The notes beneath the pieces were generated by a model, which made no database searches, had not been told where the DNA came from, and worked only from the letters and a program-made list of their open reading frames with translations. From positions 1 through 64,000 of the IMG/VR virus record IMGVR_UViG_2885028616_000003: 64,000 bases of DNA. One strand, written 5' to 3'. The stretch is from a virus. Lineage: Duplodnaviria; Caudoviricetes. Positions within the stretch are counted from its first letter, which is position 1, and each line of letters starts with the position of its first letter. Position numbers and translations under genes: made by a program. This document shows, piece by piece, positions 11,055-32,271 of this stretch.

Positions 11055-11856
11055 GGTCGGTCTCCTCTTCCTGGTGTTCGGCGGCCGTGGTCGTCGACGT
11101 CCCGTCGAGGGCCGCCTTCAGGCGGTGCGCGACGTCGCCGATGAGCGCGGCGGAGGACAGCAGAGCGGTCGCCTGGGCGTCGTTGGTGGCCTCGTCGTGC
11201 CGGCGCTTCAGATCCTTTTCGCGGGCCCGAAGGTCAGCAGCCAGCGCTCGCGCCCGCTTCACCTGCTCGCGTGCGGCCTTCCGTTCGGCTGTGACTATCT
11301 CGACCTGCTCGCGCGCCTGGTCCCGCTCGGCCTCGGCCTGCTCGATCGCCTGAAGGGCACGGTTCGCCCGGTCATCGGCCGCGGCCCGCTCCCGGGCACC
11401 CTGCACGACGAGGTCCTGAGCTTCCTTGCGGGACCGCTTGACCGCCTCGATGCTGTCGCGGAGCTGCTCCCATGAGCGGGCGCCGGGCGTGGCGTACAGC
11501 GCATCGCCGATCATCTGCCGCGCCTCGTCCAGCTCGGTCTCGGCGTCTCTTCCGGCTTGCTGCGCGCGCTCCAGCTTCGTGCGTGTCTCGTCGAGGAGGT
11601 CGCGGCGCACGCCGGCCTGCGTCCGGGCCTCGTCCCGCTCGGCGCGGACCGTGGCCAGTTGCGCGCGCATGTTGGCGGTGCCCTCCCGCATCGCAGCCCA
11701 CGCCTCGTTCAGCCTGGCGCGGAGCTGCTCGACCTCGGCGCGGGCGTCCAGCAGGTGGCGGCGCATCTCGATCGCCTTGGGCTGAAGCAGCGCCGGGTGC
11801 ATGTCGAGCAGTTCACGGATGCGCTGCTCGTCCCCGGGTGTCATGGAGTCAGCCAC
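11047..11856 (-). CDS. Coiled-coil phage protein
   Basis: AERDEAR heptad-like repeats. Confidence 0.7.
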   Translation of the reverse strand: MADSMTPGDEQRIRELLDMHPALLQPKAIEMRRHLLDARAEVEQLRARLNEAWAAMREGTANMRAQLATVRAERDEARTQAGVRRDLLDETRTKLERAQQAGRDAETELDEARQMIGDALYATPGARSWEQLRDSIEAVKRSRKEAQDLVVQGARERAAADDRANRALQAIEQAEAERDQAREQVEIVTAERKAAREQVKRARALAADLRAREKDLKRRHDEATNDAQATALLSSAALIGDVAHRLKAALDGTSTTTAAEHQEEETDHG

Positions 11857-12286
11857 GGTCCGCCTCCGTCCCGTTGAGGGCGGCGTAGAGGTCGTAGGCG
11901 AACACGAAGCCCTTGCCGTCCTCGTTGCGCCAGACCCGGACCTGCGCGGCCCGCTCCACCTGCTGGCACGCGGCGTCCCGCTCGGCCTCGGCGTTGCGCT
12001 GCCTGGACAGCGCCCGGTCCCGCTCGTTGGCGCGGCGGACGATCAACTCCTGCATGCGGTTGTTCGCGTCGCGGTACTCGGCGAGTTCGGCGCGGAGCCG
12101 CACCATCTCGGCGTCGCGGAACTCGGCCATGAACCGGGCCGTCATAGTGGCGACCTCGCTGGCGTGGACGCTGATGATGTCGTCGTGGCCAGAGTCGAGC
12201 GTGATGTCGCGGAGCCCGGCGGCGATGCGTTCGGTCCACTGTTGCGGGGGCGCCGGCTTGGGGGCGGGGGTCTTCGACTCGCTCAC
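11849..12286 (-). CDS. Coiled-coil phage protein
   Basis: Coupled ORF. Confidence 0.65.
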   Translation of the reverse strand: MSESKTPAPKPAPPQQWTERIAAGLRDITLDSGHDDIISVHASEVATMTARFMAEFRDAEMVRLRAELAEYRDANNRMQELIVRRANERDRALSRQRNAEAERDAACQQVERAAQVRVWRNEDGKGFVFAYDLYAALNGTEADRG

Positions 12287-12648
12287 GACCGACCCCCAAG
12301 GATCAAGCGGGCGAAGGTCAGGGCGCAGCGGACCGATCCGGGCTCGTTGCAGAGATCGACGGGGGCGAACTCCTCACCGAAACGAGCAAGATCGGATGCG
12401 GCACGCGTCGCCGGGGCCAGATCCTCCGCCGCCTCCTCCAGCCACGCGGCGAGGGGCCCTCGCAGCGGTGCGGCCACGTCCTGACCGTCCTCGCGAGACC
12501 CGCACTCCAGGCAATCGGCGAGGGGCCGACCAGTGGCGTTGAGCTGCTCCACCTCGGCGTCAGTGAGCACCTGGACGGGGTAGCGGTGGGCACACAGCAG
12601 CACCTTCGCGGCGGCGCGCAACTCCTCGACCGGAGACATCTCACTCAT
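12283..12648 (-). CDS. Phage hypothetical protein
   Basis: ELRAAA...LAAWLE...ALTFARLILG motif. Confidence 0.65.
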   Translation of the reverse strand: MSEMSPVEELRAAAKVLLCAHRYPVQVLTDAEVEQLNATGRPLADCLECGSREDGQDVAAPLRGPLAAWLEEAAEDLAPATRAASDLARFGEEFAPVDLCNEPGSVRCALTFARLILGGRS

Positions 12649-12935
12649 CAGACCCTCCAGTTCTTGCCGACGCGGGTCCGCTCGTTGTCGCGGGCGCTGA
12701 TGAGCGCGCGGGCGAGCTTGGAGGCGTGCTCGACGTCCCCGCACTCCCACTCGTCGCCGCACGTGCAGAGCGCCACGGTCTCGTCGGTCTCGGGGATGAG
12801 CCGGTGCCCTGCGGTGATCCCGTCCAGCAGCGCGGCGAGGTGGTCGCGGATGTCGCCCGGCGGGATCGGGGACTCGGCGCCGACCAGGACGCGGACGCCC
12901 TCGTGAATGTCGGCGATGGCCGTGGGCGTGCTCAC
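12648..12935 (-). CDS. Phage hypothetical protein
   Basis: Coupled ORF with H..CTCG.WEC. Confidence 0.65.
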   Translation of the reverse strand: MSTPTAIADIHEGVRVLVGAESPIPPGDIRDHLAALLDGITAGHRLIPETDETVALCTCGDEWECGDVEHASKLARALISARDNERTRVGKNWRV

Positions 12936-13345
12936 TGGGCACCGCCCGCGGTCTCGCGCAACAGCGTCGCGGCGTCACGGTCCGGGTCGAGGCGCTTGGC
13001 TACCTCGGTGGCGAACCGGCGGTACTGCTCGCGCTGGTTCGCGGGCATCTCACCCAACGGGAACGTGGCCGCGTCGTAGCCGAGGGTGGCCTTACGGGCG
13101 TCCCAGAGGATCTCGGCGAGCCGCTCTTCCTCGGTGATGCTGTCGGGCCAGGTGACGGTGACGGTCGCCGCGCACGCTAGGTCGTGGACTTTGCGCATCA
13201 GGTCCTGCGTGGCGTCGAAGTCGAGGTCGAACGGCTCCCAGTCCTCCTCGAACATCTCGCCGACGCCCACGAAGTCGAGTTCGGAGGCGGCCTCGACGAC
13301 GTACTTGCGGGCCCAGTCTTTGAGCTGCTCGTCGGTGTACTTCAC
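12932..13345 (-). CDS. Phage hypothetical protein
   Basis: GTG start with RBS GGAG. Confidence 0.65.
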   Translation of the reverse strand: MKYTDEQLKDWARKYVVEAASELDFVGVGEMFEEDWEPFDLDFDATQDLMRKVHDLACAATVTVTWPDSITEEERLAEILWDARKATLGYDAATFPLGEMPANQREQYRRFATEVAKRLDPDRDAATLLRETAGGAQ

Positions 13346-13971
13346 TGCTGGTCTCCATTCGTCTCGTCGCCCGCCACGGCGGCCAGCTCCCGCGCGGGCG
13401 GTGCCGTGGCGGCGCCGACGTCGCGGACGAGGGTCAGCGGCGCGTACACCTGCCGCGCCTCCGACATGGGCACCCACGTGCCGCGGTTGGTGACGAACCC
13501 GGTGCCGTCCTTGCCAGCGACGCAGAACAGCAGGTCGTCGTCGCGGCCGGAGTAGAGCTGACCGGGCCGGAGCGCGCCGGGCAGCGCGGGCTGCGCGTCT
13601 TCGGTGGGTTCGGCGGCGGCGCGGAGCGCGGCGATCACCTGTTCGGCGGTGCGGCCCTCCTGGTCCTGCCAGCAGGCCAGGGCAGTCAGCGACCACCACG
13701 CGCTCTCATCGGTGCCGAACACGTGGCGGTGCAGGGTCATCACCGCCCGCGCGTGGATCCCGGTGGGGTCCTCCGCGGCGTGGGAGTGGATGTCGATCCC
13801 GGCGGCCTTGGCGATCGCGGCGGGCAGGTCCAGCGGGCAGTCGGCGGGCTCCATGCCGGGGGTGTGCTTGTAGCCGCCCTGCTGGGTCCAGCCCTGGGTG
13901 GTGAGGGTCTCGGCGGCCCTGGTGAGGATCGCGGGGACGGTCGAGGGGGTGGGGGTTTCGGTCGGGCTCAT
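13342..13971 (-). CDS. DUF6197-like protein
   Basis: ILTRAAE.L..GWTQ...W.D.EGRTAEQVIAALRAAA. Confidence 0.7.
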   Translation of the reverse strand: MSPTETPTPSTVPAILTRAAETLTTQGWTQQGGYKHTPGMEPADCPLDLPAAIAKAAGIDIHSHAAEDPTGIHARAVMTLHRHVFGTDESAWWSLTALACWQDQEGRTAEQVIAALRAAAEPTEDAQPALPGALRPGQLYSGRDDDLLFCVAGKDGTGFVTNRGTWVPMSEARQVYAPLTLVRDVGAATAPPARELAAVAGDETNGDQQ

Positions 13972-14069: not shown

Positions 14070-15014
14070 TCAGGGGATGTGAGCGCGAGCCTCGCGCTTC
14101 CGGCTCTGGTTGATCGCGGCGAGCTGCTCGCGCAGCGCGAGGAGCGCCTCGGCGGTATCGGCGCCATCCTCAGCGGCGGTGTCGGCCGGGTCGGTGTCGT
14201 CCTGGACGGCGGCGAGGATCGGCGGCTGCACCGGCGGCGCCGGACGCTCCGGCTCAGGCTCCGCGGCCGGCCCCGGGACGGCGGCGAGCGGCGGCGCGGA
14301 AGCCTCCTGGACGGCGGCGACGATGTCCGCGAGGTCGCTCTTGATCTCGCCCGAGACGGGATCCCGCTGCATGCTCTGCAGGTACCGGACGGGGTAGCGG
14401 ACCGGTTCGGGTGCGCGGGACTCCGCGATCTCCCACACGGTGACGGCCTCGGTGTCAGTCAGTCCGTACTCGGCCCGCAGCCACCGTACGGCCTCGCGCA
14501 CCCGCGCCGACTGACTGATCCTTCTGTCTCCTCGTGGCTCCTTCTCTATAGGTGCACGATCTTCGTGCACCTCCTGCACGTTTTTCGTGCGCCTCTGTGC
14601 ACGATTTTCGTCACCCTCAGGTGCACGGTTTTCGTCGGCGGCCTCCTCGCCCGAACCGCTATCTGCACGGTTTTCGTGCACCTGGGACCGCCGGAGGTTG
14701 AGCGCCCACTTCTGGCGACGACCCCCGCGAGCTGCCCGCACCAGACAGATCGCGCCCCGCTTGGCGAGCTGATTCGTCGCATCCCGGACGGCCTTGAAAG
14801 CGGCCTGCCGCGCTAGGGCAGCCTCGGGGCTCTCGTCATCCTCGTCGGGCAACTCGCGGCCCAGCGCGGCGACCAGGTCCGCTCGCCCGCCCCAGAACAT
14901 CGGGGGGTCATCGGCGTCCAGCGAGACCAGCGCCATGTACACGAGCAGCCGGAACGCGGTGTTCGGCAGCGTCGACCACTGGTCGTAGACAGCTTTCACG
15001 TTCTGCGCTCCCAT
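14070..15014 (-). CDS. Replication initiator (N-terminal wHTH, lambda-O-like layout)
   Basis: AFRLLVYMAL N-terminal HTH, central low-complexity linker containing iterons, PVRY C-terminal domain. Confidence 0.7.
   Translation of the reverse strand: MGAQNVKAVYDQWSTLPNTAFRLLVYMALVSLDADDPPMFWGGRADLVAALGRELPDEDDESPEAALARQAAFKAVRDATNQLAKRGAICLVRAARGGRRQKWALNLRRSQVHENRADSGSGEEAADENRAPEGDENRAQRRTKNVQEVHEDRAPIEKEPRGDRRISQSARVREAVRWLRAEYGLTDTEAVTVWEIAESRAPEPVRYPVRYLQSMQRDPVSGEIKSDLADIVAAVQEASAPPLAAVPGPAAEPEPERPAPPVQPPILAAVQDDTDPADTAAEDGADTAEALLALREQLAAINQSRKREARAHIP
14552..14681. repeat. Five iterons, putative replication origin
   Basis: TGCACGNT(T/C)TTCGT at 14553, 14575, 14598, 14622, 14664. Confidence 0.75.
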
Positions 15015-15139
15015 CAGGTGCGCGGCCTCTCGGGCATGCGGGAACTCCCCAGATCCAGGCATGGGTGATCACACGACCGCCCTGGGGGAGGCGTCGTTCA
15101 ACGGTGAATGTGGAGCCGCTGGGGGGCAGCGGCGGGCGG

Positions 15140-15553
15140 CTAGTCGGCCTGCGTGTCTCCGGCCGCGCGCTCGCCCTCAGCGAGCATCTGATCGACGCGC
15201 TTGGTCGCTGCGTCGAGGCGCGGCTTGTGGATGGTCTCGGTGACCAGCTTCCGCTCAGCGGTGATGCAGGGGCCTTGCTTGACGCCGCACTCGTCACACG
15301 GGATCGCGTAGGCGGTGGCGCGGATCGTTTCCTGTCGCCTGTACCAGGCGTCGATGACCTGCTTCATCAGCTCGGGGTCGGGACGCTCGGGGAGCTTGGC
15401 TCCGGGCAGCCTCAGCCACCACGCGAACAGCTGTTCGATCACGCCGTTGCGGCTCGTCTGCATCTGGCTGGTGGGCTGCTCGGCCACGTCCCAGGCCAGG
15501 TCCTCAATGGCCACGGAGCGGTACCTGCGCCCTGAGCGAAGCTGACGGGCCAC
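15140..15553 (-). CDS. Putative Kor-like repressor with C-terminal Zn finger
   Basis: RHH-like RSVAIEDLAW...SRNGVIEQLFAW; CDEC..GPC...H; divergent from transfer operon. Confidence 0.6.
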   Translation of the reverse strand: MARQLRSGRRYRSVAIEDLAWDVAEQPTSQMQTSRNGVIEQLFAWWLRLPGAKLPERPDPELMKQVIDAWYRRQETIRATAYAIPCDECGVKQGPCITAERKLVTETIHKPRLDAATKRVDQMLAEGERAAGDTQAD

Positions 15554-15568
15554 GCGCGGAAGTCTTCC

Positions 15569-15672
15569 AGGTACATGGGCACCTTTCAACATTGGACTCC
15601 TCTCGCCGAAGCGCCTTGAGGTACAGGGGTACCTTTCGCTATCGTGACACACGATAGGTACATGGGTACCTT
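15569..15672. promoter_or_regulatory. Three operators AGGTAC-N4-G(T/C)ACCT plus a second palindrome
   Basis: Copies at 15569, 15619, 15656; CTATCGTG-ACA-CACGATAG at 15639-15657. Confidence 0.8.
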
Positions 15673-15703
15673 TGACGCAAGCCCGAAGGTCAGGAGATCG
15701 CAA

Positions 15704-15862
15704 ATGCTCCGAAGATCCCCGCTGGTCGCCCTGTTCATCGCCGCGAGCACGCTCACCTGCCCCGCCAGCGCGCTCATCCTCACCGCGATCGTCGTCGCGC
15801 CCATCGCCGGCGCCCAGCTCGCCCGAGCGCTCACCAACGCGCGGGAGACCGCCGATGCGTAA
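15704..15862 (+). CDS. Small membrane protein
   Basis: RBS AGGAG; hydrophobic. Confidence 0.6.
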   Translation: MLRRSPLVALFIAASTLTCPASALILTAIVVAPIAGAQLARALTNARETADA

Positions 15863-16031
15863 CCGGCCGACCACCTGCACCCGGTGCAGCGACCCGATCA
15901 GGCGCGGCGCCGACTACCTCACCGACGTCCGCCAGATCGAACGGGTCGGCCGCCTCGGGTTCATCAAGGTCCGCGCCACCGTCTCCGCCGCCGTCTACCA
16001 CCCCACCTGCGCCCCCAAGGGAGCCCACTGA
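15855..16031 (+). CDS. Small Zn-ribbon protein
   Basis: CTRC...YHPTC. Confidence 0.6.
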
Positions 16032-16756
16032 TGATCGTCGTACCCGCGCACCTGCGCCCCTGGGCCGTCCCCTGGCCCGCCTACTCCCCCGTCGACATCA
16101 CCCCGCCCGAACTCCACGCCGGCCCCGGGCTGGCGGTGTCCGTCGCCGAGGGGTGGGCCGAGCCCTGCACCGACCCGGCCGGACTGCCCGACCTCGCCGA
16201 CCGCCAGGCCGCCGCGCTCATCCCCTACGCCATCGACGTCGACGGGTGGCCCCTCAACCCGGCCGGACGCACCGGCAAGACCGGCCGCAACCTCGGCCGC
16301 TGGGGCGAGAACACCGCCGCCGACCCCATCGTGACCGCCGGCACCGGCCTCGAGCGCCGCGTGCTGCTGATCCGCCGCGGCGACTGCGGCCACTGGGCCA
16401 TCCCCGGCGGGATGGTCGAACCCGGCGAGACCGCCCCGGCCGCGCTGGTGCGGGAGCTGCGCGAGGAGACCGGCGTCGATCTGGCCGGCCTCGCCCCCGT
16501 CGTCCTGGCCCGCATGCTCGTCGCCGACCCCCGCGAGTCCGACCACGCGTGGGTCGCCACCACCGCCGCGCTCTACCAGCTCACCGAGCCGGTCACGGCG
16601 ACCGCGGGTGACGACGCCGACGACGCCGCGTGGCTGCCCTTCACCAGCCTCACCGCCCTGACCCGCGCCCTGGACGGGTTCGGCGCCCGGCTCTACGACG
16701 CGCACCGCCCGCTGCTGAGCAGGGCGCTCGCGCACATCGGAGGGCGCGATGCGTGA
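16031..16756 (+). CDS. Nudix hydrolase, NUDT9/ADP-ribose pyrophosphatase-like
   Basis: [24 protein letters not shown]; Nudix box [23 protein letters not shown]; DPR..D.AW; AGDDA; LY.AH. Confidence 0.9.
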
Positions 16757-17180
16757 CCGCGTCCCTGCGGCCGGCTCCGCGCGCAGCATCCTCGGGAGCG
16801 TCCTGCTCTCCGCCGCGTTCCTCTACATCACCCGCGACCTCACCGTCCCCCTCGGCGTCCTGTACGCCGTCCTCCTGATCGCCGGGTGGGTGATCTGCCG
16901 CGCGCACCTCGCACGCGTCGACGCCGAACGCGACGCGGGCATCCAGCAGCGCCGCGCCGACGTCCTCACCGGCCCCCGCCTCTCCCTCACCGAGCTGCTC
17001 TACACCGGCTCCCGCGACCAGCTCGTCGGCCACCACGACCGCGAACAGGTCATCGAGCGGCTCGGCGAGCGGTACGCCGAGGGCTACCTCACCCCCCACG
17101 AGCACGAGCAGCGCACCACCGAAGCAACCCACGCCCGCACCCGCGCCGACCTCGCGCACACCCTGCGCGACCTCCCCTGA
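16749..17180 (+). CDS. Membrane protein with DUF1707 domain
   Basis: Two TM segments; DREQVIERL...YAEGYLT..E..R...A.ART.ADL..L.DLP. Confidence 0.8.
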
Positions 17181-17189
17181 AAGGACACC

Positions 17190-17930
17190 ATGGGCTACGC
17201 CCGCTACACCCTCCGGAGAGCCGGCCGCGAGATCGAAGCCGGGTACGACGTCCCCGACCGCTGTAACCGCCGCTGGTGCTGGGCTCGCATCGATCGCGGC
17301 CTCGACCACCTCTGCGGACGCACCCCCGGTGGCGATGAACACGGCTGCGGCGGCTACTTCTGCGACCGGCACCTGTTCAGCGCATCCCTGGACGTCGGTC
17401 ACCTCTGCCCTGCCTGCCGCGCCGCCCACTGGCGTGAGCAGCTCGGCAAGATCGCAGACGTCCTCGCCGAGTCCCTCGCCTACCGCGACGAGATCACCGA
17501 CGCCGACGTCCTGGCCGACCACCCCGCCGTCGTGACGATCACAGCGCGGGACGGGTTCGGCTGCTACGCGCGCCTCACCTACGACCTGGACGAGCCCCGC
17601 CGCCTCCGCCGCGGGTGCCGCGCCCTCCCCCGACTCCTCAGCAAGATCGCTGCACCCATCCGGCTCCGCCGCGCCGAACCCTGCGGGGCCTGCGCCGACC
17701 GCGGCTGGTTCTACACCGTCGGCACCGCCGAGAAGTTCCCGCCGCCCGACGGCTGCTCCGGTGTCGCCGTGTGCGGTTGCGGCGCCGCCGAACACCAGGG
17801 CCGAACCAGCCGCCGCCTCGTCCGGCGCGCGCACCGCCGCAACCGGTCCCACTCCCGCATGGGGGCCGGGCGGCGCCTCCTGCTCGCCGTCACGTTCGGC
17901 CGGGCCGGGCGCGGCGCACCGCCCTTCTAA
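17190..17930 (+). CDS. Cys-rich multi-domain protein
   Basis: MGYA...AGY...IDRGL..LCG...GCGGYFC..H plus second Cys cluster. Confidence 0.65.
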   Translation: MGYARYTLRRAGREIEAGYDVPDRCNRRWCWARIDRGLDHLCGRTPGGDEHGCGGYFCDRHLFSASLDVGHLCPACRAAHWREQLGKIADVLAESLAYRDEITDADVLADHPAVVTITARDGFGCYARLTYDLDEPRRLRRGCRALPRLLSKIAAPIRLRRAEPCGACADRGWFYTVGTAEKFPPPDGCSGVAVCGCGAAEHQGRTSRRLVRRAHRRNRSHSRMGAGRRLLLAVTFGRAGRGAPPF

Positions 17931-17965
17931 ACCGCCCACCCCACCGAACTCCCGGAAGGAACCAC

Positions 17966-18472
17966 GTGAACGACACCAGCCTCCGCGGCCTCGCGCTCTA
18001 CGCCGCCCTCCTCGCCACGTTCAGCGAGGCCCACCCCCTGTGCGACCACATCCTCCAGGACAACACCGCCGCGCAGAACAAGACCGGCCCCGGGACCCGC
18101 GGCCGCCTCGCCTGCGCCCACCACGTCGCCACCTACACCGCCGGGCAGACGATCGCGGCCGCCGCCGTCACCACGGCGCTCGGATACCGGCTCCCGGTCC
18201 GCGCCTGGCTCGCCGGCACCGCCATCAACGCCGCGACGCACTACGCGATCGACCGCCGCGCCGGGTTCATGCGCCTGCTGCGGTCCCCGTGGATCTGCAA
18301 GGGCGACTACCTCGACCACGCCACCGCGCAGCGCCGCCCCGGCACCGTCGACACCACCGGCCCCGGCACCGCCCTCTACGAGATGGACCAGGCCAGCCAC
18401 CGCGCCATCGGCATCGCCGCCGCGGCCCTCACCACCTGGCTCGCGCTCCGCGCCGACCGGAACGGCCGGTGA
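17966..18472 (+). CDS. DUF3307-like membrane protein
   Basis: H.LCDH.LQ...ACAHHVATY...THYAIDRR...DQA.H. Confidence 0.75.
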   Translation: MNDTSLRGLALYAALLATFSEAHPLCDHILQDNTAAQNKTGPGTRGRLACAHHVATYTAGQTIAAAAVTTALGYRLPVRAWLAGTAINAATHYAIDRRAGFMRLLRSPWICKGDYLDHATAQRRPGTVDTTGPGTALYEMDQASHRAIGIAAAALTTWLALRADRNGR

Positions 18473-18477
18473 CCGGC

Positions 18478-18603
18478 ATGGCCCGCGATGACCGCGACAC
18501 CGACGAGCAGCGCGAATCGGACCGGCAGCACACCAAGAACCAGCAGACCGACCAGGACCGCGACCGCCGCGCAGACAACGACGACCGGCGCGAACGCTCC
18601 TAA
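18478..18603 (+). CDS. Small highly charged peptide
   Basis: MARDDRDTDEQ... fills operon gap. Confidence 0.4.
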   Translation: MARDDRDTDEQRESDRQHTKNQQTDQDRDRRADNDDRRERS

Positions 18604-18643
18604 CCGCCCACCGAAGCAACAGCGCGAAGAAGGGCAACCCGCC

Positions 18644-18814
18644 ATGGCTAAGAAGAAGTGGATCATCTCCGCTCCCGACGTCCCCAACCCCCTCAAGGGC
18701 AAGGACGGCAAAGGCGACTCCGCGACCGTCTACAGCAAAGCCGACCTCAACAAGCGTCTCGCCGCCGCGAAGAAGGCGGGCGTGAAGGTGAACGTCCGCG
18801 AGACCACCGAATAG
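18644..18814 (+). CDS. Small basic protein
   Basis: MAKKKWII..., high GC3, followed by hairpin. Confidence 0.6.
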   Translation: MAKKKWIISAPDVPNPLKGKDGKGDSATVYSKADLNKRLAAAKKAGVKVNVRETTE

Positions 18815-18903
18815 ACCGCCCGGCCCCGGGCTCCACCTTCCACAGCGCGCCCGGGGCCGGGCCCCGTCCACACCAGCAGACGAGACGACCCCGAAGGGCC
18901 GCA

Positions 18904-20580
18904 ATGTACGACCCTACGAGCGACCTGCCCGCCTGGGCGCCCTACGCGACGGCCGGAGTCGGCCTCACCGCCACCCTCGCCATCGGCATGTGGATCGGCG
19001 GCCGCCGGCACCGCGCACACCGCACCGGGCGCCGCCGCCGCGCCGAGGACGCGCTCACCTTCGTCGCCGCGGCCCTCGCCACCGCCGTCACCAGCCAAGG
19101 CATGTGGCGCGTCTTCGAGCACCGCCTCCACATGCCCCTCGAACTACGCGTCGTGACGTTCGCGTTCCTCGAGATCGCGATGCTCACCTGCGGGATCCGC
19201 GCCCGCTCGAACATCGCCGACCCCGAGATCGGCAAAGCCGGGCCCGAGGGCGCAGCGGTCTGGGCGCTCGCCGGGTTCTCAGGGTTCGTCGCGGCCACCG
19301 ACTCCGGGAGCTGGCACGAGGCCCTCATCCGCCTCGCCGCTCCCCTGGCCGCCGCGTGGCTGTGGGAACGAGGGCTGCACGTCCAGCGGACCCAGAACGT
19401 CTGGTCCCGGCGCCGCCGCTGGTTCTCCTCGATCCACTGGCGGATCACCCCGGAGCGGATCCTCGTCGCGCTCGGCGCGGCCGAGCCGCAGGACCGCACC
19501 GCCGCCGAGGTCGACGTCGACCGGCACATCACCCGCCTCGCAGTCGCCAACGCCCGGCTCACCCTCGCGCGCCGCCCCGGCCGCAAACTCCCAGGGACCC
19601 TGAGGCGCGCCAACGCACGAGCCCAGAGAGCGTGGCTCGCCGCGGTCAAGCACACCCCGCTCGCGCACGACCCCGAACTCCTGGCCCGGGTCGAAGCCGA
19701 GACCGCGCTGCTCGTCCACGCGACCGCCTACGCCGACCTGCCGCACCGGCCGTCCTGGATGCCCGCCCCCGCCGCCCGCCCCCAGATCTGCCTCGGCGCC
19801 CACGCCGGGCCAGGCCTGATCGCGCTCCGCGTGCTGGAGCGCGGCAAGCGCCGCATCCTGCACCCGGAGCCGGCCGAGCGGCCCTCCGCGACCACGACGA
19901 GTCTGCTCGCCCGGATCCAGCAGCGCCGCACCGACCGGCGCCTCGGCATACGGCCCGGGTCCGACTCCACCCCGCACGCCCGTACGGACGAGACCCGTAC
20001 GGTTCCCCGTACCGACAATGCCCCCCAGCACCGTACGGACCGCACCGTACGGGCCACGGCACCCACCGGTACGGCCATCCATACGGGACCGCGTACGGCG
20101 CCCCGGCTCAACCCGTACGGCACCGTCCTGGTGATGCCCGTACGGACCACACCGTCCGGGCTCGCCCTGCCCCAGCCCTCCACCCGTACGGGCCGTACGG
20201 TGCCGGGACGTACGGACCCGGACCGTACGAACGGAACCGCCCGGACGCCGGCGCAGGCCCCGTCTCCCCCGCGGCCCGAACCCACCGCCGACCAGGCCGA
20301 CGAGCAGGACGGCAGGAAGCCCGACCGTACGGACGACGCACCTGAGCCGCCCCGCGACAACCGGCGCAAGAGCAAAGAGCACTGGGCCCGGGCCCTCGCG
20401 GAGGAGATCCGTACGGCCACCGAGCAGAGCCGTACGTGGGAGCCCGACTATCCCGCCCTCATGGCCCGTACGCGCTACGGCAAGAGCTGGTGCGAGAAGC
20501 GCGTACGGGAAGCCAAGGCCCTCGCTGCCCAGCCCCGTACGGCCGCCGACCCGCGCGCCCGTACGGCCATCGGCACCTGA
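18904..20580 (+). CDS. Spd-like (DUF2637-type) membrane protein with C-terminal HTH
   Basis: Several N-terminal TM helices, P/R/T-rich linker, C-terminal YPALMARTRYGKSWCEKRVREA; directly upstream of TraB. Confidence 0.65.
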   Translation: MYDPTSDLPAWAPYATAGVGLTATLAIGMWIGGRRHRAHRTGRRRRAEDALTFVAAALATAVTSQGMWRVFEHRLHMPLELRVVTFAFLEIAMLTCGIRARSNIADPEIGKAGPEGAAVWALAGFSGFVAATDSGSWHEALIRLAAPLAAAWLWERGLHVQRTQNVWSRRRRWFSSIHWRITPERILVALGAAEPQDRTAAEVDVDRHITRLAVANARLTLARRPGRKLPGTLRRANARAQRAWLAAVKHTPLAHDPELLARVEAETALLVHATAYADLPHRPSWMPAPAARPQICLGAHAGPGLIALRVLERGKRRILHPEPAERPSATTTSLLARIQQRRTDRRLGIRPGSDSTPHARTDETRTVPRTDNAPQHRTDRTVRATAPTGTAIHTGPRTAPRLNPYGTVLVMPVRTTPSGLALPQPSTRTGRTVPGRTDPDRTNGTARTPAQAPSPPRPEPTADQADEQDGRKPDRTDDAPEPPRDNRRKSKEHWARALAEEIRTATEQSRTWEPDYPALMARTRYGKSWCEKRVREAKALAAQPRTAADPRARTAIGT

Positions 20581-20630
20581 CCCGTACCGCCCAGCACGGC
20601 CATACGGCCCCGTCCGTACGAGCCCGTACC
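19980..20630. repeat. Dense CCGTACGG palindrome array
   Basis: About 12 perfect copies (hand count) and a similar number of 1-mismatch copies, irregular spacing, extending past the stop codon. Confidence 0.9.
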
Positions 20631-20651
20631 CCGCACACCATGGAGACCACA

Positions 20652-22754
20652 GTGACCGTCGACCTGGACAAGGACTCGCAGCCCGCAGCCCAGGCCCCCT
20701 CTACCGACCCGCCTACCGCTCCCCTACCGGACGGCGACGGCAGCCACGACGACGGCGAGGTCCTCGAGGGAGTCATCGTCCGCCCGAACCTGCCGGCGCT
20801 GCTGCCCGACTGGGTCCGGGACTGGGAGATCGCCAAGGCCCGCGCCGACGTCCGTGCCCGCCGCGCCGCCTACAAGGCCGCGTTCCACCTGCTCAGGACC
20901 CACCGCTACGCGTGGCGTTTCGCCTGGGGAGGCGGCGTCGGCTGGTACCGCGGCGGCTGCCGGCTCGTCGACTGGCTCACCCTCGGCGAATCCCGCGACC
21001 TGCGCCTGCACGCGGCCGGGCAAACCGACGCCAAGGAGTACCTCGCCCTACTCCACGCCCGCAACGACCACCTCAGGGTCCGCAGCATCGTCGCAGGTGG
21101 CACGGGTCTCGCCGTCGCGGCCGGGGTGGCGGCGGAGGCCTGGCTGCTCCCCCACTCCGTCCTGTGGGTCGAGGGCGCGCTGGCGTGGGCGGTCGCGGCC
21201 TGGCACGGCGGCCCCGAGCCCGACGTCGGCCTCCTCGACGAGCCCGAGGTCCCCGTTCGCCTGGACCTGTCCGCCGAGCACCTCAACGCCGCGTTCCGCG
21301 CCATCGGCATCCTCAAAGGCAAGGACGACGACGAGGACGCCCCCCGCCTGGTCCTGGTCCAGCCGCCCATGCGGGACTCCTCCCGGTCCTGGTCAGCGGT
21401 GGTGGATCTCCCCCGCGGCACCGGCAAATCCGCCAACGACGTCCTGGCCCGCCGCGACCGGCTCGCCGCCGAACTCGGCGTCGACGAGATCCAGCTCGAC
21501 ATCCGCCGCGTCCGAGCCGTCCACAAGGGCCACGCCGGGCGCCTGTCGATCTGGATGTGCGACGAAGACCCCTACCTCCAGGACAAGCCCACCCAGTCGC
21601 CGCTGGTCAAAGCCGAATCGTTCAACGTGTGGAACCCCGTGCCCTTCGGCCGGGACGCCCGCGGCGACCGCGTGGACCTGCCGGTGATGTGGCAGTCGAT
21701 GTTCTTCGGAGGGCTCCCCCGCCGCGGGAAGACCGGCAGCCAGCGCGACGTCGTCGCCGCCGGCGTCCTGGACGCCTCCGTCCGGCACCGCCTCGCCGAC
21801 GGCAAGGGCGGCGCCGACTGGAAACCCATGCGCCGCCTGGCCTACCGGTACGTCCTGGGCGCCGAGGCCGACGCCGTCACCGCCCTGGAAGACATGCTGG
21901 ACGAGGCCATCGCCGACATGGAAGCCGCGTTCAAGAAGCTCAACGCGCTCCCCCTGCACCTGGTCCCCGATGGGAAGCTCACCCCGCAGATCGTGGAGCG
22001 GTACGGGTTCGAGCTGAACTGGATCACCATCGATGAGCTGCAGGAATACCTGTCGGCGATCACCGACAACAAGCGCCGCGAGGCGCTGATCGAGCGGCTG
22101 TGCCGCCTCGCGCGCCGCGGACCCGCCGCCGGGTTCTTCAGCAACTTCGCCTCCCAGCGCCCCGACGCCACGTCCGTCCCGACCCGGCTGCGGGAGATCG
22201 TGTCCTACCGGTACTGCACCCAGGTCATCGACAAGACCAGCTCCGACATGGTCCTGGGTGACGGGAAGGCCAAGCAGGGCGCTGACGCCTCGATCCTGTC
22301 CGAGGAGCACGTCGGTGTCGGGGTGCTCGTCACCGGCCCCGCCTCGTTCACCACCGTCCTGGCGGACTACATCACGCTCCCGGAGTTCGTCGACATCTGT
22401 CAACGCGGCCGCGAGTTGCGGATCAAGGCGCAGACACTGGCCGGCGACGCCACCGACGAAGTCCTGTCCGGTGAGCGCGAAGACGTCATCCCGCAGGTCC
22501 TCGCGGACGCCCTTACCGTCATGCGGCATGTCGACCGGATGCACACCACCGACCTGCTCAACCGGCTCATCAACATCGATGAGGGCTACTACGGCGACTG
22601 GTCCGCTGACACGCTGGCGACCGAACTCGCCGCTGCCCGTGTTGAGCGTTCGACCGTCCAGGTGAAGATCAGCGGCGTCAACCGCAACGGCTGGCACAAG
22701 TCGGATCTGCTGGCCGCCGCCGATCAGTTCGGAGGCGCCCGGCACCGTTCCTGA
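20652..22754 (+). CDS. traB: FtsK/SpoIIIE-family conjugative DNA translocase (TraB-like)
   Basis: TM pair, Walker A GGLPRRGKT, DGKGG.D, Walker B ITIDELQ, SQRP, C-terminal wHTH-like region. Confidence 0.85.
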   Translation: MTVDLDKDSQPAAQAPSTDPPTAPLPDGDGSHDDGEVLEGVIVRPNLPALLPDWVRDWEIAKARADVRARRAAYKAAFHLLRTHRYAWRFAWGGGVGWYRGGCRLVDWLTLGESRDLRLHAAGQTDAKEYLALLHARNDHLRVRSIVAGGTGLAVAAGVAAEAWLLPHSVLWVEGALAWAVAAWHGGPEPDVGLLDEPEVPVRLDLSAEHLNAAFRAIGILKGKDDDEDAPRLVLVQPPMRDSSRSWSAVVDLPRGTGKSANDVLARRDRLAAELGVDEIQLDIRRVRAVHKGHAGRLSIWMCDEDPYLQDKPTQSPLVKAESFNVWNPVPFGRDARGDRVDLPVMWQSMFFGGLPRRGKTGSQRDVVAAGVLDASVRHRLADGKGGADWKPMRRLAYRYVLGAEADAVTALEDMLDEAIADMEAAFKKLNALPLHLVPDGKLTPQIVERYGFELNWITIDELQEYLSAITDNKRREALIERLCRLARRGPAAGFFSNFASQRPDATSVPTRLREIVSYRYCTQVIDKTSSDMVLGDGKAKQGADASILSEEHVGVGVLVTGPASFTTVLADYITLPEFVDICQRGRELRIKAQTLAGDATDEVLSGEREDVIPQVLADALTVMRHVDRMHTTDLLNRLINIDEGYYGDWSADTLATELAAARVERSTVQVKISGVNRNGWHKSDLLAAADQFGGARHRS

Positions 22755-22806
22755 ACCCGCCTCCGAGGCGGCCAGACCGGTCTTCTCGCAGGACCCACCT
22801 AAACCG

Positions 22807-22897
22807 CCTACCTCGCAGGTCAGAGCACCTGCCAGGGGTTCCTACCGCGCGCCTACCGCGGGAGGTGGTTCCCGGTCAGAGGCCATATGCCGGTAGG
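22807..22897. repeat. clt-like CCTACC(G) repeats downstream of traB
   Basis: Copies at 22807, 22841, 22852 and inverted at 22891; three more at 20701-20729. Confidence 0.55.
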
Positions 22898-22950
22898 CAC
22901 CCCAAACCCGACGCATGACCGCCAGGTCACATCACGTAGAGGAGAGCATC

Positions 22951-23313
22951 ATGCCACCCGCGAAACGGACAACCCGGGTCCGCAGCCACACCCGCAGCGA
23001 CGGAACGAAGGTCAAGAGCCACAACCGCGAAGCAGCCCTCGCGCAGGCGAAAGCAGCCTGGGCCGGCGCCGGGGTCTCCGGCCTGACCACCCTCGCCCTA
23101 GTGGTCGAGATGGGCTTCACGATCATCTCCACCACCGCCCTCATCATCACCGCGCTACTGGGCTGGCTCGCGGTGTACGCGACCCAGCGGACCGCCAAGA
23201 ACAAGCGGAAGATCCGCGCCACCAGAGCCACAGCCAGGCGAAACACCGGCCGCCGCACCACCACCCGCAGCCGCTCCACCAGCCGTGGCAAGACGACGAA
23301 GAAGCGCCGATGA
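22951..23313 (+). CDS. Basic two-TM membrane protein
   Basis: VRSHTRSDGTKVKSH.R motif, hydrophobic core. Confidence 0.7.
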   Translation: MPPAKRTTRVRSHTRSDGTKVKSHNREAALAQAKAAWAGAGVSGLTTLALVVEMGFTIISTTALIITALLGWLAVYATQRTAKNKRKIRATRATARRNTGRRTTTRSRSTSRGKTTKKRR

Positions 23314-23450
23314 CGGGCCTGCGACTCGCGCCCACGCTCGCCTGGGCGTCGCTGGCGGCCGGGCTCGCCACCGGCCACGCCGCCGCCGGCGTCCTCGTCG
23401 CCGCGGTGTTCGCGCTCGTCGGCGCGGCCGCGAGGAAGAGGCGCCGGTGA
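23310..23450 (+). CDS. Small membrane protein
   Basis: ATGA-coupled, hydrophobic with basic tail. Confidence 0.55.
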   Translation: MTGLRLAPTLAWASLAAGLATGHAAAGVLVAAVFALVGAAARKRRR

Positions 23451-24580
23451 CCGGTGATTCGAGGCCGTCCGGGGTCGGCGGTATCGCCGGCTCCGGGTTG
23501 TCGGGTGCGCTGATCCGGCCGGGTTCGGTTGCGCAGGCCGGTGGGGAACGGGAATGCCAATTCCCGGAACTCGATCATGTGGGGGGCGGGCCGGCGTTCG
23601 ACGCCGCCGCGGCGCTCCCGCCCGGCAAGAACCCGTACCTGGTGTACCTGTCGCGCTTCACCAAGCCCGAGAGCCACCGCGCGATGGCCGGATGCCTCGA
23701 CCGCATCGCCGGCCTGTGGGCCCTCCAGTTGGACATGGCGCTGCCCGAGCCGTACGGGCAGCACTTCCCCTGGGCGTCGCTGCGGTACGCCCACACGGCG
23801 GCGATCCGCGCCATGGTCCTGGCGCAGACCCGCGCCGACGGGCAGCCTTGGGCGCCCGCGTACCGCAACAAGCACCTCGTCGCGCTACGCCGGGTACTGA
23901 GGGTCTCGTGGAAGCTGGAGCTGATGTCCACCGACGACTACCACCGTGCCTGCGACGTCGAGGGCGTCGAGCATCGGCGCCTCGTCGTCGGCCGCGTCAT
24001 CACGGCGGAGGAACGCGCGCAGCTCACCGCCGTCTGTCTCGCCGACCCGGCTCCGCAGGGGCTGCGGGACGCCGCCCTTCTGGAATCGCTGTACTCGACC
24101 GGGTGCCGCCGCGCCGAGCTCGCCCGCGCCACCCGCGACGACTACGACCCCGGGTCCCGGACCCTCATCGTCACCGGCAAGCGGGACAAGCAGCGCGACA
24201 CCTACCTCACCGAGGCCGCCGCGGCCCGCCTCGGTGAGTGGCTCGTCGCCGGCCGCCCGCGGGGGCCTCTGTTCCCGGCTGGAGACAGGTGGGGCCGTAT
24301 CGGGACCGAGCACATGACCTCGAACGGCATCGGGCAGGTCGTCGCGCGCCGGGCCCGCCAGGCCGGGGTGCCGGACATCTCCCCGCACGACTTCCGCCGC
24401 ACCTTCACCGGTGACCTCCTGGACGCCGGTGTCGACCTGGCAACGGTGCAGCAGCTCCTCGGGCATGCGTCCGCGTCGACTACGGCGGGGTACGACCGGC
24501 GGCCGGCCGCTGCTCGTCGTGCTGCCGTCGATCGTCTGGGAGGCGGCCCGGCGGGCATGTCGGCTCGGCATCTCACCTGA
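23447..24580 (+). CDS. Tyrosine recombinase (resolvase-like)
   Basis: TGCRRAE (R), GKRDK (K), HDFRR (HxxR), LGH, GYDRR (Y). Confidence 0.92.
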   Translation: MTGDSRPSGVGGIAGSGLSGALIRPGSVAQAGGERECQFPELDHVGGGPAFDAAAALPPGKNPYLVYLSRFTKPESHRAMAGCLDRIAGLWALQLDMALPEPYGQHFPWASLRYAHTAAIRAMVLAQTRADGQPWAPAYRNKHLVALRRVLRVSWKLELMSTDDYHRACDVEGVEHRRLVVGRVITAEERAQLTAVCLADPAPQGLRDAALLESLYSTGCRRAELARATRDDYDPGSRTLIVTGKRDKQRDTYLTEAAAARLGEWLVAGRPRGPLFPAGDRWGRIGTEHMTSNGIGQVVARRARQAGVPDISPHDFRRTFTGDLLDAGVDLATVQQLLGHASASTTAGYDRRPAAARRAAVDRLGGGPAGMSARHLT

Positions 24581-24585: not shown

Positions 24586-24626
24586 TTGCGTACATACACA
24601 AGACAGGCTATTCTGTATGTACGCAA
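24586..24626 (+). promoter_or_regulatory. Promoter with two TTGCGTAC-N-TACGCAA-like operators
   Basis: TTGCGT-N17-TATTCT overlapped by IR TTGCGTACATACA/TGTATGTACGCAA. Confidence 0.75.
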
Positions 24627-24643
24627 TGAACGAGGGAGGCGCC

Positions 24644-24925
24644 ATGCAGGTCTGGATTCTCGCCCGGGGCGAGGACAGCGAGGGCGAGCAGGTCCTCGGC
24701 GTGTACGCCTCCCGCGACGCCGCGCGCGCCGACTTCGAGCGGGAGGCTCTGGTGGTCGACCGCGCGTTCACCATCGACCGCGCGTTCAACACCGAGGACG
24801 GCTCGGTCTACATCCACGGCGGCTGCGACTGGGTGACCCTCACCCCGTGGACCGTCCAGGGCGCTCCCGTCCCGGGACCGGCCGCCCCGGCGCTGTCCGC
24901 CCAGCAGCCGCAGGCCCTGGCCTGA
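24644..24925 (+). CDS. Hypothetical protein
   Basis: RBS GGAGG; VWIL..GE..EG..VLGVYAS motif. Confidence 0.7.
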   Translation: MQVWILARGEDSEGEQVLGVYASRDAARADFEREALVVDRAFTIDRAFNTEDGSVYIHGGCDWVTLTPWTVQGAPVPGPAAPALSAQQPQALA

Positions 24926-24985
24926 CCGGTCCCCTGGCCCGCCCGGCATCCGCCGGGCGGGCCTTGTCATGCCCGCGGCCGCGGG

Positions 24986-25255
24986 TCATCCGTCGCCGGC
25001 TCGGCTACGGGCGCGCGAGGTGGCGGCGCGGCGGTAGCGGTTGCGCTTGCGTTCCGCGAGTTCGTGTTCGCCGGATCTGAGCTGCTCGATCTCGCCGGGG
25101 GTGCCGCCGGCTTCGATGACTTCGCGGATGCGCTGGTGGATATCGGCGGTGGGGTTGCTGTCCTGGCGCTTGAGGACGGCCTGGTAGGCGGTCCACATGG
25201 GGGTGGGGACGCGGATGGTCTTGCCGGGTGTGCGGTCTTCTTCGGTTCGAGTCAT
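24986..25255 (-). CDS. Ribbon-helix-helix-like repressor
   Basis: TPGKTIRVPTPMW.AY...ADI...I. Confidence 0.65.
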   Translation of the reverse strand: MTRTEEDRTPGKTIRVPTPMWTAYQAVLKRQDSNPTADIHQRIREVIEAGGTPGEIEQLRSGEHELAERKRNRYRRAATSRARSRAGDG

Positions 25256-25274
25256 GGTCTGACGATCCCATGCG

Positions 25275-25315
25275 TTGCGTACAGACGCAACAAGCGGTAT
25301 TGTGTACTTACGCAA
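25275..25315 (+). promoter_or_regulatory. Promoter with two operators of the same family as 24586-24626
   Basis: TTGCGT-N17-TATTGT; TTGCGTACAGACGCAA and TTGTGTACTTACGCAA. Confidence 0.75.
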
Positions 25316-25416
25316 TAACAACTCCACAGCGGACCGCCCCCGAGGGCGGACACCGGGCCTCCCGGGACCGGCGCGAGCCGGGGCCCACCCGATTCCAACT
25401 ACAAGGGAGGCCCCCG

Positions 25417-25740
25417 ATGTCCACCACCTTCACCACCACCCTCGGCGGCCCGGAGCTCAACCTCCACAACGGGAACACCCGCACGGTGCTTGAGCTTCTG
25501 GGACTTCCCGCCGAGGAGCCGTGGGGCGACGCACCCGCCGAGGACTTCCTCGGCCGGGTGCTCATCGCACAGGGCCTGCTCAACGTCACCACCGACGACG
25601 AGCACGGGCGACCGGCCGTCACCGACGGCCGCATCACCTACGGCGGCCGGAACCCCGGCCGCCTGGCCCAGGTGCTGGCGGAACTCCAGGACATCGCGTC
25701 CTGGGCCCACCGCCACCACGCGGACGTGACGTGGGACTGA
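25417..25740 (+). CDS. Hypothetical protein
   Basis: RBS GGAGG; PELNLHNGN...LLG...FLGRVL.A motif. Confidence 0.7.
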   Translation: MSTTFTTTLGGPELNLHNGNTRTVLELLGLPAEEPWGDAPAEDFLGRVLIAQGLLNVTTDDEHGRPAVTDGRITYGGRNPGRLAQVLAELQDIASWAHRHHADVTWD

Positions 25741-25836
25741 CCCACCACGACCGCCTCCGTGGGGCCACCGCCCGCCGGTGGCCCCACGGGCCTGTCGCCC
25801 CCAGGACCGCCCGGGATGAGTGGGTAACACCTCTCC

Positions 25837-26055
25837 ATGCCTCGCGTACCGCCGATCGTCGGCTCCGCGACCGCCGACGGTCCCGCATACCTGCTCGCCT
25901 GGGAGCACCTGCCCGACGGCACGTGGGGCGCGCACATCGCCTGGGTTGTGCTCGAAGGCGAGGCCTGGAAGGTGAAGTCGGCGCGGGTCGCCGCGGACGA
26001 TCTGGAGCGCATGAAGGGCCAGGACTACGAGCGGGTGCCGCGCCGACAGCCGTGA
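25837..26055 (+). CDS. Hypothetical protein
   Basis: High GC3; LLAW...DG.W.A.IAW...GQDY..VPR. Confidence 0.65.
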   Translation: MPRVPPIVGSATADGPAYLLAWEHLPDGTWGAHIAWVVLEGEAWKVKSARVAADDLERMKGQDYERVPRRQP

Positions 26056-26141
26056 CCGCGCATCCGCAACTCGACCCGCATTTCGGCCACGTCCGGTCAC
26101 GTACCTGTGTCTGTCGGTAAGGACCGTGGCAGCATCGGCGC

Positions 26142-26921
26142 ATGCCCTCCCCCGACATCGACGTCGATCGCCCCTCAGCCGCCCGTGTCTACGACTACGT
26201 CCTCGGCGGCAAGGACAACTACGCCGTGGACCGGCAGGCCGCCGAGCAACTGTTCGAGATAGCTCCGGAGATCCGCGACACCGCCCGGGAGAACCGGGCC
26301 TTCCTGCGGCGCATGGTCCGCTACCTCGCCGGGGAAGGCGTCCGGCAGTTCCTCGACCTCGGCGCGGGCCTGCCCACGGTCGAGAACACCCACCAGGTCG
26401 CCCAGGCCGCGGCCCCCGACACCAAGACCGTGTACGTCGACAACGACCCCATCGTCCTGGCGCACGGCCGCGCGTACCTGGACCTGGACGCACGGACCAG
26501 CTTCCTGTCGTCCGACATCCGCGACACCGCCGCCGTGCTCGATGGCGCCGGCGCGCACCTGGACCTGTCCGAGCCGATCGGGTTGTTCTTCGTGAACGTG
26601 TTGCACCTGGTCGGCGATCGCGACGACCCTGCCGGGCTGGTCGCCGCCTACGCTCATGCTCTTGCGCCCGGCTCGCATGTCGTGATCACCCATGTCTCCT
26701 CGGATGGGGCGTCCGAGGAGCTTCGGGCCCGGATCGGGTCGGTGTTCGCCGGCTCGTCCGCGGATGCGCGTCTTCGCACACGTGAAGAGATCCGCGGGAT
26801 GTTCGGCGGGCTGCCGCTGCTGGAGCCGGGCCTGGTCGATGTCGCGGCGTGGCGCCCTGAGGACGGTGACGAGCCCGTCGGTGAGCTACGCGTGTTCGCC
26901 GGCGTGGCCCGGGTGCAGTAG
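26142..26921 (+). CDS. SAM-dependent methyltransferase (Methyltransf_19 type)
   Basis: PSAARVYDY.LGGKDNYAVDR, QFLDLGAGLPT, YVDNDPIVLAH, PGLV...WRP. Confidence 0.93.
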   Translation: MPSPDIDVDRPSAARVYDYVLGGKDNYAVDRQAAEQLFEIAPEIRDTARENRAFLRRMVRYLAGEGVRQFLDLGAGLPTVENTHQVAQAAAPDTKTVYVDNDPIVLAHGRAYLDLDARTSFLSSDIRDTAAVLDGAGAHLDLSEPIGLFFVNVLHLVGDRDDPAGLVAAYAHALAPGSHVVITHVSSDGASEELRARIGSVFAGSSADARLRTREEIRGMFGGLPLLEPGLVDVAAWRPEDGDEPVGELRVFAGVARVQ

Positions 26922-27104
26922 GTCGTGGCGGCCGGCGCGTACAGCTTCGAGCAGCCCCACCCACGCGCCGGCCGACATGCTCAGCTGCGATCCGGGGGCT
27001 TTGGAGTCGCGGACCGCGACGCCGGCGGTGGACGCGGCGACTTCGACGCACTGGCCGTGGGCGTCGCTTCCGCTGGCCTTCCGCCAGATCTTGGAGTGGG
27101 TCAC
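26886..27104 (-). CDS. DUF397-domain protein
   Basis: WRKAS.S...CVEVA...VAVRDSK.P. Confidence 0.93.
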   Translation of the reverse strand: MTHSKIWRKASGSDAHGQCVEVAASTAGVAVRDSKAPGSQLSMSAGAWVGLLEAVRAGRHDLLHPGHAGEHA

Positions 27105-27982: not shown

Positions 27983-28042
27983 GGACGTCTCCTCGAGTTG
28001 TGGAGTCTCAGGCTACTTGGGGGTGCCCCCCGTGGAAATACT

Positions 28043-28079
28043 GATTCGCATAATACTTGGCGCTTGCATATTGCGAATC
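28043..28079. promoter_or_regulatory. Putative XRE operator/divergent promoter
   Basis: AT-rich stretch with IR GATTCGCA...TGCGAATC. Confidence 0.55.
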
Positions 28080-28115
28080 GGGTCTCTGGCTGTGAGGCTA
28101 GGGGCAGTTGGGAGG

Positions 28116-28207
28116 AGCCTGGAGCGGGCCCGACCGCCGCCGTATACCCCACCCACATCCCCCGGGCCCACGTACGCGGACAGCGGGACGGGAACCCGCT
28201 CCAGGCT
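28116..28207 (+). other. Long hairpin in tnpB leader
   Basis: 13-bp stem AGCCTGGAGCGGG/CCCGCTCCAGGCT with inner pairing and C-rich loop. Confidence 0.6.
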
Positions 28208-28258
28208 TCTGTCACTCGCACGCGCGAGCCAGACCTGTTCCGAAGAGCGACGGAAGCG

Positions 28259-29443: not shown

Positions 29444-29497
29444 CGAGAAGCCGCCCCTTCCAAGGTGCGGAAGAGTCACCCCAATCCCCCGGGCTCA
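29300..29497 (+). ncRNA. Putative omegaRNA (5' limit uncertain) with right end at about 29479 and guide 29480-29497
   Basis: GAAGCCGCCCC-ttccaa-GGTGCGG hairpin ending in GAGTCAC just after the tnpB stop, typical of IS605-type right ends. Confidence 0.55.
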
Positions 29498-29519
29498 ACC
29501 CCGCTTCCAGACCGCTCGC

Positions 29520-29942: not shown

Positions 29943-29979
29943 GCGCGGAAACTACGGAGAGTCATTCCCGAGATCGCTG

Positions 29980-32254: not shown

Positions 32255-32271
32255 CGAAACGAGGTCGGGCT

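Follow-up and report, generated by a model that had tools for sequence, protein, structure and literature searches.

A TraB-type transfer and replication block that probably belongs to a 114.7-kb integrated siphophage-like element of an actinomycete chromosome

A conjugation-type gene block in a phage-bearing stretch of DNA

We analysed a 64,000-nucleotide stretch of DNA (IMG/VR record IMGVR_UViG_2885028616_000003; hereafter the window) that carries a block of plasmid-type transfer (tra) and replication genes at 14070-24580 together with a siphophage virion module. The window corresponds to bases 642,239-706,238 of a single 9,528,492-base contig of genome G000 and is therefore chromosomal DNA rather than a plasmid contig; the host is probably an Actinomadura (Thermomonosporaceae), not a Streptomyces. 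All coordinates are window-based, with negative values and values above 64,000 lying outside the window, and comparison genomes are coded (G002, G036, G057, G079, G104, G107 and others). Because the G+C content is about 71%, third-position G+C (GC3) was used for gene calling, and about 90 proteins were scanned for families in Pfam, NCBIfam and PHROGs. The best explanation, at a probability of about 0.7, is that the block forms the transfer and replication section of a single temperate siphophage-like element of 114.7 kb that is integrated in the chromosome.

The open reading frame (ORF) at 20640-22754 (+) was assigned to a TraB-type FtsK/SpoIIIE translocase of double-stranded DNA (dsDNA) because of its motifs, its plasmid homologues and its FtsK-type fold. 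The protein has a Walker A motif GLPRRGKT and a Walker B motif IDELQ, and an alignment of 15 homologues revealed that G357, G363-K364-T365, D465-E466 and Q506-R507-P508-D509 are invariant (G-x4-GKT, DE, QRPD). A tblastn search matched 81 plasmid records (69 from Streptomyces), annotated FtsK/SpoIIIE; among them are NC_007431.1 (S. venezuelae, 12,652 bp; E 1e-41) and NC_008792.1 (S. viridosporus, 12,207 bp; E 6e-39), which we take to be plasmids pSVH1 and pSG5. The best plasmid match, 57% identical, lies on a 14.6-kb unit with its own recombinase that is deposited as a 29-kb duplicated record. No tblastn match was obtained in 50,697 phage records, a scan of IMG/VR with TraB gave no relative and a scan of genome contigs matched G079 alone; at the nucleotide level, megablast gave no match for the tra block among plasmids or for the virion module among phages. 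An AlphaFold (AF2) model of TraB had a mean predicted local distance difference test score of 71, with values above 75 over residues 210-670. Its top folds in the PDB were the FtsK motor and pCW3 TcpA, an FtsK-like coupling protein (E 4e-15 to 1e-13; template modelling score on the target 0.57-0.72), and residues 612-686 are modelled as three helices and a beta-hairpin. A DUF3631 match (E 0.0027) was too weak and was discarded as noise.

Immediately upstream of traB lies a clt-like array at 19980-20630, made up of 12 exact CCGTACGG palindromes of 8 bp and many one-mismatch copies. It spans the 3' half of a SpdB-like gene up to the traB start codon. In an 8-mer clustering scan of the whole element, 12 of its 17 CCGTACGG copies fell within 19980-20566, where about 0.02 are expected per 400 bp. 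TraB proteins recognise plasmid-specific 8-bp repeats in clt (PMC4447253). At the same position, the related element of G079 carries 11 copies of a different 8-mer, CCCGCACG (L031:3321-3940).

The gene that contains most of the array (18904-20580, +) encodes a DUF2637/SpdB-like polytopic membrane protein whose low-complexity C-terminal half is encoded by the repeats. It has no Pfam match; its nearest Atlas clusters are DUF2637 at 0.96 and SpdB_N at 0.82-0.83, and a 36% identical homologue adjoins traB in a second related element, that of G107. Small hydrophobic ORFs lie at 15704-15862, 16749-17180 and 22915-23313. The last of these, downstream of traB, encodes a small basic protein with a hydrophobic core that is Spd-like by composition only; its call on the plus strand is uncertain, as the antisense frame 22932-23279 (-) is also open and composition does not settle the strand. 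[quoted passage not shown] It is followed by genes for a transmembrane, DUF1707/SHOCT-like protein (16749-17180, +), a Cys-rich protein of 246 amino acids (aa) (17190-17930, +) and a DUF3307-like protein (17966-18472, +), all three with homologues on contig C69 of G079. The block ends with a gene for an Xer-like tyrosine recombinase (23579-24580, +; Phage_integrase 4.4e-25), most like XerC/D and kept next to traB in all three elements (G000, G079, G107), which could act in dimer resolution or as a second integrase. The first-pass annotation of this DNA had listed a TraB/FtsK translocase, Spd-like membrane genes, a Nudix gene and a resolvase-type recombinase; the first three were borne out, as was the presence of a recombinase, which is of the tyrosine Xer-like type and not a serine resolvase.

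On the replication side, the ORF at 14070-15062 (-) encodes an initiator-like protein with an N-terminal winged-helix-like part and a C-terminal domain, as judged from its translation and Atlas clusters (nearest Phage_rep_O, RepA_N and HTH_36 at 0.93); Pfam gave no match. As had been predicted, the gene bears iterons: five direct repeats of about 21 bp, GTGCACGnTTTTCGTGCACCT, with spacings of 22-24 bp and 42 bp, lie at 14552-14683 beside a pyrimidine-rich stretch and inside the initiator's own coding sequence, which is the lambda O/ori layout. The initiator gene of G079 has six copies of a different iteron in the same place (L031:590-730). Iterons and pre-traB array thus differ in sequence between G000 and G079 while keeping their positions, a pattern that fits putative co-evolving protein-site pairs. 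Protein family scans of the block revealed neither a RepSA nor a primase replicase, in agreement with the first-pass annotation.

That annotation had also placed a candidate transfer repressor about 125 bp upstream of, and co-oriented with, the initiator. A small conserved gene does lie there in that orientation (15140-15514, -) and is kept beside the tra genes in G107 too; the gap measures 78 bp if counted to the first ATG, or 126 bp if the second Met is taken. It encodes a 124-aa protein with a CxxC..C motif, and the evidence for a repressor is a zinc-finger match below the Pfam cut-off (Phage_zn_bind_8, E=0.002); the product may be a regulator that binds DNA through a zinc finger. In the divergent gap between the leftward rep and rightward tra operons, three palindromic repeats of 18 bp, AGGTACAnGGGTACCTTT, occupy 15569-15673 and look like operators.

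A single att pair encloses 114.7 kb

An exact 65-bp direct repeat (74 bp at 97%) was found at -559..-486 and 114,166..114,239. These are its only two copies in the 9.53-Mb genome, and no degenerate third copy lies between the two ends. The pair encloses 114.7 kb and sets the element at -559/-485 to 114,165/114,239; a repeat search within the window alone gave nothing useful because both att sites fall outside it. A chromosomal acyl-CoA dehydrogenase gene has its 3' end in the right att copy, and the left copy is the displaced original end; the C-terminus of the dehydrogenase is restored by the element-borne copy with one residue changed (V-to-I). In relatives G104, G036 and G057, whose flanks are about 90-95% identical, the flanks are 180-300 bp apart and form the exact empty site, and the attB of G036 reads as the left side of attL, the core and the right side of attR. 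GC3 is 0.85-0.95 for genes from about -340 to 114,040 and 0.97-0.99 for the flanking genes. Adjoining attR, a terminal integrase of 561 aa (112356-114041) has weak N- and C-terminal tyrosine-integrase matches. Since a scan of the window and 60 kb on either side revealed zero tRNAs, integration is not at a tRNA gene. As the sole att pair bounds all of them and relatives show the empty site, the tra block, the cargo genes and the phage genes are held in a single insertion of 114.7 kb.

The same acyl-CoA dehydrogenase 3' site is also wider than in the empty configuration in G006, G112 and G035, with flank gaps of 5.4, 2.2 and 3.9 kb versus about 0.2 kb, and may be an insertion hot spot.

The first-pass annotation had proposed one replicon, a candidate phage-plasmid. 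One element with both machineries is indeed indicated by the single att pair, the empty sites and the gene order kept in relatives, whereas a free replicon is not: the element lies integrated in the 9.53-Mb chromosome contig, with att repeats and a terminal integrase, and no par genes were found. A true phage-plasmid, which in lysogeny would be a free circle replicated from the iteron origin and would have the integrated form as one of two alternative states, appears highly improbable. The initiator with its internal iterons would suit it, the Xer-like recombinase could resolve dimers, and PhiNon1 of Nonomuraea is found both as a circle and integrated at tRNA-Val (PMC5431353). However, the assembly consists of one chromosome with the element integrated and no separate contig, no ParA motif (KGGxGK[ST]) occurs in any frame, no partition family was found among the proteins scanned, and the portal has no match on any of 72,556 plasmid records (PLSDB). 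PhiNon1 of N. gerenzanensis (PMC5431353) resembles the element in being plasmid-phage-like, in its Streptosporangiales host and in site-specific integration, but is 59 kb long, targets tRNA-Val and was shown to be a multicopy circle.

The closest parallel in organisation is pZL12/phage ZL12 (GQ919031), a Streptomyces conjugative plasmid-phage (Zhong et al. [quoted passage not shown] Like the element, pZL12 (about 90 kb) is a temperate siphophage with a tra region beside the head genes, and this region includes the FtsK/SpoIIIE-like pZL12.71c, adjacent membrane-protein genes, the Nudix gene 76c and the GntR regulator 80. The two differ in that the Streptomyces pZL12 is a free circular plasmid with ParAB, whereas the element is 114.7 kb long, probably resides in Actinomadura and is integrated; it has att repeats and a terminal integrase, and the scans found no par genes in it. 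The two share four weak protein matches and no more: the Nudix protein (43% over 107 aa, pZL12.76c), the DUF3307-like protein and two weak tail matches. Their translocases give no BLAST match to each other.

Transfer block and virion module are kept together in diverged relatives

The phage part of the element includes, on the minus strand, an endolysin (CHAP and PG_binding; 38269-39006) and a holin (39176-39496), and minor tail genes follow from 39989 (all assigned with PHROGs/Pfam), where the siphophage virion module starts that fills the window to 64000. The module includes Dit (46198-47427), a tape measure of 1582 aa (47168-51916), major tail (52789-53367), head closure (55120-55821), major capsid (59293-60453) and protease (60951-62654) and, beyond the window end, portal (64534-66228) and large terminase (66242-67684), all likewise on the minus strand. 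The lysis-tail-head-terminase set is thus complete from 38.2 kb to 67.7 kb, and with head, tail, packaging and lysis genes, an integrase and attL/attR/attB the element has the gene content and sites of a temperate siphophage. The transfer block had been described as lying between a phage early operon and the virion module. The module is real, but it extends to 67.7 kb and is separated from the recombinase by 13.7 kb of cargo, which ends at the lysis genes. The early operon beside the block did not hold up: the leftward operon at 3.4-14.5 kb has three PHROG matches only, all to families of unknown function, and the main early region falls beyond the window, at 69-110 kb.

Two diverged relatives carry the same arrangement. 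In the complete genome G107, the element is collinear with that of G000 across TraB (58%), the recombinase (53%), the small 25417-type gene (65%), the HTH_31-DUF5753 gene, the early region and the entire virion module, in which the portal is 61% and the tape measure 64% identical. It spans 116.3 kb and is bounded by direct repeats of 47 bp at the tRNA-Thr(CGT) 3' end. Two contigs of G079 are collinear with the G000 element, C69 over 14-33 kb and C55 over 37.7-114 kb; the G079 TraB is 72% identical to that of G000, and the traB frames are intact in all three elements. The order tra block, recombinase, cargo, virion is kept in both, which is the conserved linkage of tra to head and tail genes that the first-pass annotation had proposed to look for in related elements. 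Because the same content occurs at different integration sites, one of them tRNA-Thr, the composite moves as a unit, and these comparisons give good support to the view that the tra block and the virion module are parts of one mobile unit.

In G107, the tRNA-Thr att repeat recurs 3 kb outside attL as a partial third copy of 38 bp (concatenated 20126, 23144), which points to a remnant or a small tandem insert there.

The block resembles AICEs in several respects, and it could be argued that ~14-25 kb is a separate AICE nested in the prophage that still excises and transfers alone. The block has an iteron-bearing initiator, a Nudix gene, an Spd-like gene and TraB in the usual AICE order with a recombinase at one end (layout PMC2440964), a GntR-type regulator was not found in the block scans, and the closest plasmid TraB (57%) is on the 14.6-kb unit with its own recombinase. 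AICEs such as pSAM2 (PMC2440964) further share with the element tyrosine-recombinase integration, a duplicated att, a TraB-type gene and a Nudix gene (Pif in pSAM2), and in pMEA300 the initiator RepAM binds repeats inside its own gene (PMC2440964), as is predicted for the element. They are, however, 9-24 kb long, mostly inserted at tRNA sites and devoid of virion genes, whereas the att pair of the element encloses a full phage at a protein-coding target, and no att repeats of its own surround the 14-25 kb block. Direct repeats bounding the block, which had been named beforehand as evidence against a single element, were looked for in G000, G079 and G107. The search yielded 11-15-mers only, which is chance level: when segment pairs of matching size are drawn at random from this element, 28% have 15 or more bases in common, at least as many as the best pair. 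The 15-mers of G000 and G107 are unrelated. Moreover, the genes on either side of the block are syntenic in G079, as are those on its right side in G107, despite 40-60% protein divergence and different chromosomal sites; any capture must therefore be old, and since then the block has moved along with the phage. Taken together, a nested AICE seems quite unlikely.

A possible second route of transfer between hyphae

For the integrated siphophage-like element that we favour, the following course of events can be envisaged. The terminal integrase would excise the element to give a circular dsDNA, for which we infer two exits. In one, the circle would be packaged into virions. In the other, TraB hexamers would dock on the 8-bp array via a C-terminal winged helix and pump the DNA into an adjoining hypha; spread of the element across septa would fall to the SpdB-like and small membrane proteins, and the Nudix protein, acting like Pif of pSAM2, would block transfer between carriers. 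Most likely, the block would have begun as a captured AICE or plasmid module and would now be a fixed part of the phage lineage. More broadly, and more tentatively, with odds somewhat short of even, a lineage of ~115-kb integrating siphophages of Actinomadura-like actinomycetes may combine phage and integrative and conjugative element (ICE), its whole genome travelling in virions and also being pumped by TraB as dsDNA between hyphae via a lineage-specific 8-bp array. If this is true, lysogenisation would be independent of virions.

The TraB-clt-Spd system of pSVH1 and pSG5 (Reuther 2006; Thoma 2015, PMC4447253) is a close counterpart of the transfer part. Its TraB is about 33% identical over the motor and has an FtsK-like fold, and an 8-bp repeat array beside traB, a SpdB/DUF2637-like partner and small hydrophobic proteins are common to both. 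The differences are that these are 12-kb plasmid replicons and not a 115-kb phage, that no GntR TraR/KorA was found in the element, and that the repeat of the element is palindromic, upstream of traB and inside the spd-like gene.

These differences recur among the points that weigh against the two-route interpretation. No GntR/KorA-type repressor was detected in the block by family scans, and near traB of G107 there is no comparable 8-mer array, just four copies of CGCCAAG. Being palindromic and located upstream of traB within a coding region, the G000 array could be the site of another DNA-binding protein and not clt. Phages in G002, G070 and G074 have a related head module (portal ~61-64%) without a close TraB, and the tra module is therefore accessory in a mosaic family and not universal. 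The inner Xer-like recombinase beside traB, as in AICEs, leaves independent mobility of the block conceivable. Excision, virions and transfer are all inferred from sequence, and for a capsid capacity of 115 kb the near-equal sizes of 114.7 and 116.3 kb are two data points only.

The missing Kor-type repressor and the lack of a clear repeat array in G107 would also be compatible with a TraB module that has no role in mating, but moves phage DNA between compartments of the infected or induced mycelium or is an inactive relic. SpdB2 homologues have been noted on actinophages and proposed to help spread phage DNA (PMC4447253). On the other hand, the catalytic motifs are all kept, three elements retain the protein at 58-72% identity, each with an intact frame, and CCGTACGG of G000 is replaced by CCCGCACG at the same position in G079, as expected of a used protein-site pair. 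In addition, plasmids use the same machinery for transfer and spread (PMC4447253). We consider a non-mating TraB unlikely, though less so than a nested AICE.

If both routes of the integrated element work, new hosts could be reached without adsorption, receptor-based resistance would be no barrier and 115 kb including cargo genes would be movable by mating. The border between prophage and ICE would be blurred in mycelial actinomycetes, which bears on how prophages and AICEs are counted in genomes. The principle of a conjugative plasmid-phage was already shown by pZL12; what differs here is integration, a size of 115 kb and a probable Actinomadura lineage. The locus offers a clean test bed: its att sites are defined, relatives provide the empty site, and a candidate clt array is at hand together with two natural variants whose repeats differ.

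Left arm, cargo and early region

Most left-arm and early genes, like the initiator and the SpdB-like protein, had no match in Pfam, NCBIfam or PHROGs. The left arm has small genes at 361-3291 (+), which include one for a bPH_2-SHOCT protein at 2662-3291 (GC3 gene calls, Pfam); the left att copy is just outside the window. Downstream of the initiator, the leftward operon comprises about 20 small genes (3361-13971, -), among them a DUF6197 gene at 13342-13971, and several have homologues in the early region of the G107 element. One left-arm protein of 295 aa (10167-11054) has a sub-threshold match to Gad1 (Gabija anti-defence 1), with E 0.0068 and 16 bits against a 27-bit cut-off.

The cargo and regulatory region (24626-37953) carries Methyltransf_19, HTH_31-DUF5753, solo TnpB and GNAT genes, HTH_31 regulators and an HTH_17 protein, and is partly kept in G079 and G107. 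The TnpB is an IS605-family OrfB/TnpB (27968-29443) with OrfB_IS605 and Cas12f1-like TNB domains and no tnpA nearby; its DNA matches at 88% in G005 and 79% in G003 suggest a mobile copy.

The leftward early region at 69-110 kb (~40 kb) contains DUF932, vWA-TerF, Lsr2-like, XRE, RecT and YqaJ genes, with the Lsr2 DNA-binding-domain protein at 98382-99290 and the vWA-TerF-like protein at 96163-96951. The element has 11 TGGCGAGG copies, 8 of which are grouped within this region at 90133-90913, in a gene-free gap of about 1.1 kb that may represent a second origin or an operator array.

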